Origin: Escherichia coli
GTDB lineage: Bacteria; Pseudomonadota; Gammaproteobacteria; Enterobacterales; Enterobacteriaceae
NCBI RefSeq assembly: GCF_003334815.1
Contig: NZ_QOWO01000088.1
Direction: 5' to 3' (one strand)
Length of the DNA stretch: 2,230 nucleotides
Shown: positions 1,291 to 2,084 of the stretch, one piece after another
Layout: every line of letters starts with the position of its first letter
Position numbering within the stretch: the first letter of the stretch is position 1
The notes under the pieces: generated by a model
Seen by the model: the letters and a program-made list of their open reading frames with translations, nothing else
The model's database searches: none
What the model was told of the DNA's origin: nothing
Program-made: the position numbers and the translations under genes

Positions 1291-1321
1291 GGCCGCCATG
1301 TGGCGGCCTGAATTATTTTTT
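1291..1321 (+). terminator. Putative intrinsic terminator after yjiA: stem GGCCGCC/GGCGGCC with ATGT loop (1291..1308), then a T6 tract (1316..1321)
   Basis: Perfect 7-bp GC-rich inverted repeat seen directly, 12 nt after the yjiA stop. The T-tract is separated from the stem by 7 nt (TGAATTA), which is suboptimal. It lies in the 33-bp gap between the convergent yjiA and brnA genes. Confidence 0.45.
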
Positions 1322-1615: not shown

Positions 1616-1878
1616 AGCGATTCCTCTCTTTACGATCTGCTTTTCGTGCACTGATGATTCGAATAATTTCATTTCCGCTTTCGAAACGGATGGTATGCGC
1701 AACCAGAATAACCACGATGCCGTAATGTCTGCCAGCGATACTCACCGTTTTCTATGCGTTCTTGCTGTGACAAATGTTGTGGATCATCAAACAATAACAC
1801 CGCATCTTCAAAGCGGATGCCATGTTTCACCCGATTACTTTTGGCCTTGTTTTCATCCCATTCAAACTCCATTGGCAT
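1602..1878 (-). pseudogene. brnT: BrnT-family toxin (DUF497, RelE-like fold ribonuclease toxin) disrupted by an apparent +1 frameshift near 1722
   Basis: The N-terminal half (MPMEFEWDENKAKSNRVKHGIRFEDAVLLFDDPQHLSQQERIENGEYRWQTL) reads in the frame of the 1669..1905 ORF. The conserved C-terminal half (GIVVILVAHTIRFESGNEIIRIISARKADRKERNRYEHG, stop TAA at 1604..1602) is in a different frame that has no start codon. Removing one base around 1722 (minus-strand ACATTA-C-GGCATC) would join them into one 91-aa ORF of typical BrnT size. The reconstructed 3' end overlaps the brnA start by 14 nt, the usual toxin-first brnTA layout. The start is ambiguous: ATG at 1878 (preferred, with GGGATGG 5 nt upstream), 1887 or 1872. 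Confidence 0.6.
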
Positions 1879-1893
1879 AATTGCCATCCCTAA

Positions 1894-1905
1894 TTGTATA
1901 TACAA
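1894..1905. promoter_or_regulatory. Perfect 12-bp palindrome TTGTATATACAA just upstream of the brnT start; candidate operator for the BrnA/BrnTA repressor
   Basis: Exact self-complementarity seen directly in the sequence. It lies 16 nt upstream of the preferred brnT start codon in the AT-rich leader. Ribbon-helix-helix antitoxins typically autoregulate through palindromic operators. Function is inferred, not shown. Confidence 0.3.
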
Positions 1906-1960
1906 AAATGTATCTACAATTATTCTGCAATTATAGCGTTGATGTTGGAAATAGCATCAC
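1906..1960 (-). promoter_or_regulatory. Candidate brnTA promoter region: consensus -10 TATAAT on the minus strand (1935..1930) with a poor -35; direct repeat CAATTAT at 1917..1923 and 1928..1934
   Basis: Hexamer and repeats read directly. The -35 match is weak (ATGCTA at 16-bp spacing). An alternative pair, TTGTAG/TACAAT, overlaps the palindrome at 15-bp spacing. Promoter assignment is tentative. Confidence 0.2.
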
Positions 1961-1992
1961 GTTTCGAATAATCAACCATGAAATTGACAATG

Positions 1993-2003
1993 AGTAAGTT
2001 GGA
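1993..2003. repeat. 11-nt inverted copy of the IS1 terminal-repeat core (AGTAAGTTGGA, reverse complement of TCCAACTTACT at 2071..2081)
   Basis: Exact 11-mer reverse-complement match seen in the sequence, 58 bp outside the IS1 terminus. It could be a relic of a second, inverted IS1 end or a chance match; 11 nt is short. Confidence 0.3.
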
Positions 2004-2061
2004 CTTGATTCATCCAATAGAATTTCTCGCCTGACATGGCACACTAAACACCTCGCTGTCG

Positions 2062-2084
2062 GGTAATGACTCCAACTTACTGAT
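2062..2084. repeat. IS1 terminal inverted repeat (GGTAATGACTCCAACTTACTGAT)
   Basis: Matches the recalled canonical IS1 right inverted repeat (GGTAATGACTCCAACTTATTGAT) with one substitution (T to C at 2080). This marks the IS/chromosome junction at 2061/2062. Confidence 0.85.

Follow-up and report, generated by a model that had tools for sequence, protein, structure and literature searches.

The BrnT/BrnA toxin-antitoxin pair of Brucella abortus belongs to the closest described systems for the locus considered here. In the literature citing Heaton et al. (2012), the C-terminal ribbon-helix-helix domain of Brucella BrnA is presented as the DNA binder, through which the antitoxin controls brnTA transcription (PMC11980606), and both BrnA alone and the BrnT2-BrnA2 complex are described as binding their own promoter and autorepressing it (PMC10714953, PMC5086665, PMC11980606). 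In the present study, the leader of a brnTA pair was analysed in a 2,230-nucleotide stretch of Escherichia coli DNA (contig NZ_QOWO01000088.1 of assembly GCF_003334815.1; hereafter, the window). Comparison with related loci suggests that two short boxes in this leader, the perfect palindrome O2 (TTGTATATACAA) and its imperfect copy O1 (TTGTAGATACAT), very likely constitute the BrnA operator of brnTA, of the autoregulatory kind standard for type II toxin-antitoxin systems. No operator sequence for any BrnA was found in the searchable literature, the primary Brucella paper (Heaton et al. 2012, JBC 287:12098) standing outside that search.

The gene pair of the window shares with its Brucella counterpart the toxin-first bicistronic operon, and its proteins fall into matching families (PF14384 for the antitoxin and similarity to 3U97 for the toxin). 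However, the relation is distant, the intact homologue of the window BrnT matching the 3U97 BrnT with E = 1.6e-4, and the toxin gene of the window is a pseudogene. The enterobacterial complex of PDB entry 7VD7 is of the same subfamily as the window pair: its toxin chain (chain A) matched intact E. coli BrnT with E = 4e-52, and its antitoxin chain matched BrnA residues 14–57 with E = 1.4e-16, but this antitoxin is a fragment without the C-terminal DNA-binding domain, and the structure contains no DNA. Both genes are named in RefSeq. In intact alleles, the brnA start overlaps the brnT end by 14 nt, and the arrangement of the BrnTA family, a PF04365/DUF497 toxin followed by an overlapping PF14384 antitoxin, was recognized (BrnA against the Pfam family BrnA_antitoxin, PF14384: E = 3.1e-17); an NCBIfam search of BrnT and BrnA gave no match for either protein.

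Ribbon-helix-helix proteins such as MetJ with its met-boxes, Arc, CopG, RelB with relO, FitA and ParD act on operators composed of short dyad or tandem boxes that overlap the promoter. The β-ribbon of a dimer reads each box, two adjacent boxes take up two dimers, and the side chains of the β-strand set the specificity. The element proposed here differs from these operators in the box itself, (T)TGTATATACA(A), and in the 14-bp spacing of the boxes, both specific to this BrnA clade, while BrnA differs from the respective repressors in that its predicted DNA-binding domain is C-terminal, not N-terminal. The relO operator is described in PMC11980606.

An autoregulatory operator had been suggested in a preliminary description of this DNA, made from the sequence alone, on the basis of the palindrome, its position and a nearby direct repeat. 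The exact self-complementarity of TTGTATATACAA at 1894..1905 was verified, as was its location between a promoter-like hexamer and the brnT start: a perfect TATAAT lies further upstream on the minus strand, and the annotated brnT ATG (1878, minus strand) follows the end of O2 by 16 nt. A perfect 12-bp palindrome was obtained in 6.7% of shuffles of the 184-nt leader alone, and 10% of such shuffles had a directly repeated 7-mer with its copies offset by 7–15 nt. Since the palindrome and the repeat are unremarkable by themselves, a functional claim must rest on the comparison of related loci. A second perfect 12-bp palindrome, GAAGAATTCTTC, occurs at 241–252 inside the yjiX coding sequence and shows that such sequences arise by chance.

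The direct repeat CAATTAT is present as described (1917..1923 and 1928..1934, 11-bp offset) but did not hold as an operator element. Its upstream copy, which coincides with the TATAAT/TATACT hexamer, is not conserved, and the downstream one corresponds to the AATTG flank of O1, found in one subgroup only; the repeat consists of TATAATTG, the −10 hexamer, and AATAATTG, the O1 flank, and is probably coincidental. Around the brnT start codon, a 5-bp inverted repeat TGGCA-ATTA-TGCCA is located at 1871–1884 (minus strand, TGGCAATTATGCCA); it forms a small hairpin in RNA prediction and is not conserved in other genera.

Related loci were collected by a scan with the BrnA protein over one genome per species, which provided 80 loci with BrnA identities from 87% down to 50%; the 69 loci in which an adjacent brnT with sufficient upstream sequence was located were analysed. 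The exact core GTATATAC was found no more than 100 nt upstream of brnT in 41 of these 69 loci (52 occurrences in 6.9 kb), against a single occurrence in 202 kb elsewhere in the same loci, i.e., an upstream enrichment of approximately 1500-fold. The core is present in every one of the 33 loci with a BrnT identity to the E. coli protein of 69% or more. Measured from the alignment column of the first E. coli brnT codon, the dyad of the core lies 19–55 nt (mostly 19–29 nt) upstream. In an unanchored count over the 80 nt upstream of brnT, GTATATAC was likewise the top 8-mer (41/69 loci), whereas the top 8-mer of control windows taken 320–400 nt upstream of brnT was shared by only 7 of 68 loci. Among 19 genus-level representatives, the pairwise identity was 90% over the 12-bp box and 26%, equal to random, over −60 to −25 from the dyad, and an anchored profile placed the conserved segment at approximately −21 to +6 relative to the O2 dyad. 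So, the box is conserved upstream of orthologous brnTA genes while the leader around it diverges. Conservation in orthologous leaders was the check by which the preliminary description could have been refuted, and its proposal withstood it.

The hosts of the exact core include, among others, Citrobacter, Enterobacter, Klebsiella, Raoultella, Pantoea, Erwinia, Xenorhabdus, Photorhabdus, Thiothrix, Achromobacter, Sphaerotilus and Lautropia; in some of them, the bases flanking the core within the 12-mer differ. The full 12-mer occurs in loci of Citrobacter, Enterobacter, Klebsiella, Raoultella, Erwinia, Achromobacter and Sphaerotilus, and one-base variants of it in Xenorhabdus and Photorhabdus. 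An identical 12-mer is also present upstream of brnTA on the Acinetobacter baumannii plasmids pAB0057 and AbATCC329.

The motif upstream of brnT changes together with the antitoxin. The residues compared were the triplet 61–63 of the predicted BrnA β-strand (Q61-A62-S63 in E. coli). Loci encoding [Q/H][A/T]S (class A) carry GTATATAC in 43 of 48 cases, the other five having one- or two-base variants, e.g., GTGTATAC; loci encoding STT (class B; L060–L083, and 300–405 of L084, an A. lwoffii plasmid) carry GTA[G/T]TAAC, e.g., GTAGTAAC, in 16 of 19 cases; and all three loci encoding Q[L/I]T, a third class, carry GTAACTAC. No locus combined the triplet of one class with the motif of another. The outer TGT/ACA triplets are common to classes A and B, and the inner four bases differ. 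The class B operator, ACAAAAA(A/T)GTAGTAACAT, was found in 15 of 72 upstream regions versus four matches in 414 kb elsewhere. The same rule is repeated inside Acinetobacter, where, on different plasmids, QTS accompanies TTGTATATACAA and STT accompanies GTAGTAAC; therefore, the correlation does not come from shared ancestry alone. Three classes of operator sequence are thus matched by three sets of residues at the putatively DNA-reading positions of the antitoxin. This co-variation, together with the upstream enrichment and the retention of the box amid diverged flanks, supports the autoregulatory role put forward in the preliminary description.

The second box, O1, had been overlooked in that description. 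Its dyad is located 14 bp upstream of the O2 dyad, and in the anchored profile, TTGTATATAC is conserved at −20 to −11 from the latter. Where a locus contains a second exact core (12 loci), it is always 14 bp upstream of the first. Most Enterobacterales leaders have a box at the O1 position, e.g., TTGTATATAC, TTGTCTATAC or TTGTATATGC, and the loci of A. baumannii and Betaproteobacteria have a partner box, TGTGATACA, about 13.5 bp away on either side. Such dyad-symmetric boxes, repeated at a fixed spacing, are suited to a dimeric antitoxin.

As for the protein, the AlphaFold2 model of monomeric BrnA was poor, with a predicted local distance difference test score (pLDDT) of 66 and no strand, and was therefore replaced by a model in which a flexible linker connects two C-terminal domains. 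The linked dimer showed the order β 59–67, α 68–74 and α 81–99 twice, with a predicted template modelling score of 0.71 and a domain pLDDT of approximately 90. Its best Foldseek matches were chains of the F-plasmid relaxosome of about 110 residues (probability 0.99–1.0), which we take to be the tandem ribbon-helix-helix protein TraY; the match to the single-chain ribbon-helix-helix protein VirC2 was far weaker (probability 0.10, E = 0.88). The C-terminal domain of BrnA is accordingly predicted to be a ribbon-helix-helix domain, in agreement with the description of BrnA in PMC11980606, and the cognate antitoxin would, by this fold and its PF14384 membership, possess a DNA-binding domain. A profile search of the PDB found no solved structure covering this C-terminal domain.

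Two candidate promoters, P-up and P-box, place the boxes in the promoter/leader region of the toxin-antitoxin operon. Across the Escherichia/Citrobacter/Klebsiella/Raoultella subgroup, all 13 leaders have retained the −10 hexamer of P-up in the form TATAAT, TATACT or TATTAT, with 6–8 nt on either side varying. Consensus and approximate matrix scans revealed no convincing −35 partner for it, and the hexamer is not present in the Enterobacter/Silvania/Pluralibacter subgroup, whose leaders diverge directly upstream of O1. In the Enterobacter subgroup, a −10-like TACACT directly precedes the ATG; it was rejected as a promoter, because transcription would start within the coding sequence. Further upstream, the block AAACGTGATGCTATTTCCAACA contains GTGAnGnTnTTTCCA, invariant in the same 13 leaders, beyond which the sequence could not be aligned; this block is possibly the −35 region of P-up. 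In most relatives it starts with AAATGTGA, which resembles a CRP half-site. A CRP-like site (TGTGA) was rejected for this block: E. coli has CGTGA, the second half matches in three of five positions, and, centred approximately at −30 relative to the start set by TATAAT, the site would not lie at an activating position.

In the alternative, P-box, half-sites of the boxes themselves supply the hexamers. In 21 of 23 Enterobacteriaceae leaders, TTGTxx-15-TACAAT was one of the three best-ranked candidates of an approximate sigma-70 matrix scan, and betaproteobacterial relatives have a similar layout, TTGTGT-16-TACACT, with the ATG about 6 nt later. Counting against P-box, transcription from it would begin near 1886–1888, within or beyond the Shine-Dalgarno-like AGGGA; AGGGA or AGGAAG is located at the matching position in Enterobacteriaceae leaders. 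A consensus promoter scan of the leader found no minus-strand promoter.

In the mechanism that we infer from this layout, in which the binding of BrnA, its stoichiometry, the position of the promoter and repression itself are all putative, O2 and O1 would together form the brnTA operator and each accept one BrnA dimer, the two-stranded β-ribbon of the C-terminal domains being placed at the dyad, within the major groove. The boxes would overlap the core promoter, either as its −35 and −10 elements (TTGTAG-15-TACAAT) or at approximately +10 and +24 of the TATAAT promoter, and BrnA bound there, alone or as BrnT2-BrnA2, would block RNA polymerase and thereby autorepress brnTA. Because the boxes fall within the region covered by RNA polymerase under either promoter, bound BrnA should repress; since the promoter is not fixed, the mode of repression could be either occlusion or a roadblock.

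Several observations weigh against this assignment. At least one perfect 12-bp palindrome appeared in 50% of 2000 dinucleotide-preserving shuffles of the window. No well-scoring sigma-70 candidate was found on the brnT strand, the matrix scan giving weak and competing ones. According to PMC10714953, a BrnA-like antitoxin of Acidovorax showed no binding in a gel-shift assay with a probe that, by context, was its own promoter. Finally, the loci are phylogenetically related, so that locus counts overstate independence, a problem lessened by flanks no more identical than random sequence and by the replicate inside Acinetobacter.

The boxes could also act as RNA. They would then form a 13-bp hairpin, AAUUGUAGAUACA-UUUU-UGUAUAUACAAUU, at the 5′ end of the brnTA mRNA before the Shine-Dalgarno sequence, stabilising the mRNA or tuning its translation. 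The predicted minimum free energy of this hairpin (−16.4 kcal/mol, z = −4.1 versus shuffles) and the pairing of 77% of cells across 30 distinct leaders agree with such a role, but two copies of a self-complementary box pair automatically. Moreover, the ten core pairs are without any both-sided change, O1 varying against a fixed O2 so that unpaired or wobble cells result; only in the four outermost pairs have both sides changed, the number of pairs so changed lies within that of the shuffles (167 of 500 reach the count), and the covariation score is borderline (36 of 500 shuffles reach it). The only match in an Rfam search was the ribozyme drz-agam-1, below threshold and at chance level (21.5 bits versus a gathering score of 37, E = 0.29). 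Neither compensatory changes nor a curated family thus marks a structured RNA of the 5′ untranslated region. In addition, 8 of the 41 core-bearing loci have a single box, and a lone palindrome of 8–12 nt forms no stable hairpin. The hairpin also requires the unproven upstream promoter (start near 1923) and leaves the co-variation of BrnA residues unexplained, and we regard a role as RNA as improbable.

It is similarly improbable that the conserved sequence is the brnTA promoter only (−35 TTGTAx, −10 TACAAT), kept for RNA polymerase and not for a repressor. The frequency with which TTGTxx-15-TACAAT ranks among the best sigma-70-like candidates fits this possibility, as does the coincidence of the left half of the betaproteobacterial box with a −35-like TTGTGT or TTGTAT. 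However, the whole GTATATAC dyad is kept without change, a symmetry that a promoter does not require; with respect to the −10 hexamer, the box shifts by clade, from the spacer in Betaproteobacteria to a place over the −10 in enterics; and the motif classes follow the β-strand residues of BrnA, not host taxonomy. A promoter at this place is, moreover, compatible with an operator and does not exclude it.

A third possibility, very improbable in our estimation, is that a host factor recognises the boxes or that they serve recombination or mobility, e.g., as a LexA-like SOS box, a site of a nucleoid protein or the edge of a mobile cassette, and that BrnA does not bind them. Some toxin-antitoxin loci are controlled by LexA, and TTGT-ATAT-ACAA, an A+T-rich dyad with TGT/ACA outer triplets, superficially resembles the 16-bp LexA box CTGT-N8-ACAG. 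The homology between leader subgroups ends just upstream of O1, and the locus belongs to a variable region beside IS1 and restriction genes. At the same time, the half-sites are TTGT/ACAA, not CTGT/ACAG, and the spacer is 4 bp and not 8 bp, so that the LexA consensus is unmet; no CTG-N10-CAG occurs in 1880–1960, and an SOS box was rejected. The motif accompanies brnTA over Gamma- and Betaproteobacteria and Acinetobacter plasmids, hosts that share no such regulator site, and its class changes with BrnA, not with the host. This co-variation is what would be expected if the β-ribbon of BrnA read the centre of the box, which argues against a host factor as the binder. A functionless chance palindrome in A+T-rich intergenic DNA is hardly credible: although half of the shuffled windows and the yjiX coding sequence contain such a palindrome, the approximately 1500-fold enrichment upstream of brnT across the 69 loci and the 90% identity of the box against 26% in its flank contradict it.

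The operator assignment can be extended to a more specific reading, which is tentative and in our opinion somewhat doubtful as a whole. Here, the brnTA cassette would carry a self-contained promoter-operator, in which the half-sites of the boxes are the −35 (TTGTAx) and −10 (TACAAT) elements, so that BrnA and RNA polymerase would contend for identical bases; betaproteobacterial cassettes would produce leaderless mRNA, the ATG following the −10 hexamer by about 6 nt; and BrnA residues 61–63 would form a recognition code for the inner 4 bp, QAS or HAS for ATAT and STT for AGTA. In Betaproteobacteria and distant relatives, a −10-like hexamer was observed 4–8 nt (usually 6 nt) before the brnT ATG, with no Shine-Dalgarno sequence (region of ~40 nt upstream of brnT; L056, L046, L050, L048, L047, L043, L059 and L051, and class B loci such as L069, L079 and L074). 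This hexamer is often TGnTACAAT-like, or TAACAT in class B, and its position points to brnTA mRNAs that lack a leader and to an operator that occupies the promoter spacer or covers the −10 element. In the window, an in-frame ATG at 1885–1887 (minus strand) precedes the annotated brnT start by three codons and follows TACAAT by 5 nt. Some relatives (L004, L007, L024 and L027), but not all, also have it, and translation of a leaderless mRNA could begin there, provided that the promoter embedded in the boxes is real.

The brnT gene of the window contains an 11-bp deletion at ~1725/1726 (ATCGGCCTGGT in intact alleles), as revealed by alignment with these alleles, and its frame is lost after approximately residue 51; RefSeq labels it "BrnT family toxin, frameshifted". 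The inactivity of the toxin, presumed in the preliminary description, is borne out by both, and a functional ribonuclease toxin is not encoded in the window. The other E. coli alleles examined in detail (L001 and L003) have an intact brnT, and WP_001297643 is an example of an intact BrnT. In this strain, which retains an intact brnA with a Shine-Dalgarno sequence of its own, the circuit would shrink to self-repression of BrnA, and because brnT is a pseudogene here, the element presumably serves that function only. A truncated brnT match beside brnA was also seen in L010, L021 and L067, and in L044 a 44%-identical brnT lies ~400 nt from brnA; loss of the toxin with retention of the antitoxin may be a recurrent event.

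The window is chromosomal DNA, and the positions of its features are compiled in Table 1, with gene annotation from the RefSeq record of an identical strain: over 1290–2070 (781 bases searched), the window is 100% identical to E. coli strain SCU-172. The brnTA locus is carried by 2113 of 5426 complete E. coli genomes (~39%), and only 26 of the 2113 matching genomes are at least 99% identical to the window. IS1 is inserted 185 nt upstream of the brnT start, and the operator/promoter segment is not part of it. In the IS1-free allele (L003), a restriction endonuclease gene, transcribed divergently, and a type I restriction-modification system take the place of IS1, and in other strains IS1 is followed by differing neighbours. 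The region beside yjiA appears to be a variable "immigration control" region.

Table 1 Features of the 2,230-nucleotide window, with candidate regulatory elements of the brnTA leader
Feature	Position	Strand	Remarks
yjiX	109–312	plus	
yjiA	323–1279	plus	
G+C-rich hairpin GGCCGCCATGTGGCGGCC	1291–1308		Between convergent yjiA and brnA; T-runs on both strands; likely a bidirectional terminator
brnA, intact, 100 aa	1313–1615	minus	Proposed repressor
brnT pseudogene	1602–1878	minus	RefSeq start is the ATG at 1878..1876
Leader, A+T-rich (36% G+C), 184 nt	1879–2062		
Shine-Dalgarno-like AGGGA	1891..1887	minus	8 nt upstream of brnT ATG
Box O2, perfect palindrome TTGTATATACAA	1894..1905		Proposed primary BrnA site; core GTATATAC at 1896..1903; dyad between 1899 and 1900
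Box O1, imperfect copy TTGTAGATACAT	1919..1908	minus	Proposed second BrnA site; dyad between 1913 and 1914
Alternative promoter P-box	−35 TTGTAG 1919..1914; −10 TACAAT 1898..1893	minus	15-nt spacer
Candidate −10 TATAAT (promoter P-up)	1935..1930	minus	Start near 1923; boxes at ~+10 and ~+24
Conserved upstream block AAACGTGATGCTATTTCCAACA	1943..1964	minus	Upstream edge of the conserved brnTA module
End of IS1 element	2063–2230	minus	RefSeq annotation and alignment with the IS1-free allele; junction 2062/2063

The general understanding of toxin-antitoxin regulation is unchanged by these results. They offer a concrete site of 8–12 bp, a layout of two boxes and three operator classes matched to three β-strand variants, so that autoregulation of brnTA by BrnA becomes directly testable in E. 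coli. If the boxes are the operator, protection by BrnA would be expected to be lost when the core GTATATAC is changed to GTCGCGAC in each box, and if the recognition code is true, a designed swap of specificity would be possible; experiments would be most rewarding on the operator classes that co-vary with BrnA and on the design, a possible one, in which the operator is embedded in the promoter. The site is also relevant to the brnTA modules on carbapenemase-bearing Acinetobacter plasmids. Additionally, the strain analysed here is predicted to represent a simple natural case, in which a toxin-antitoxin module has been reduced to a self-repressing DNA-binding protein.

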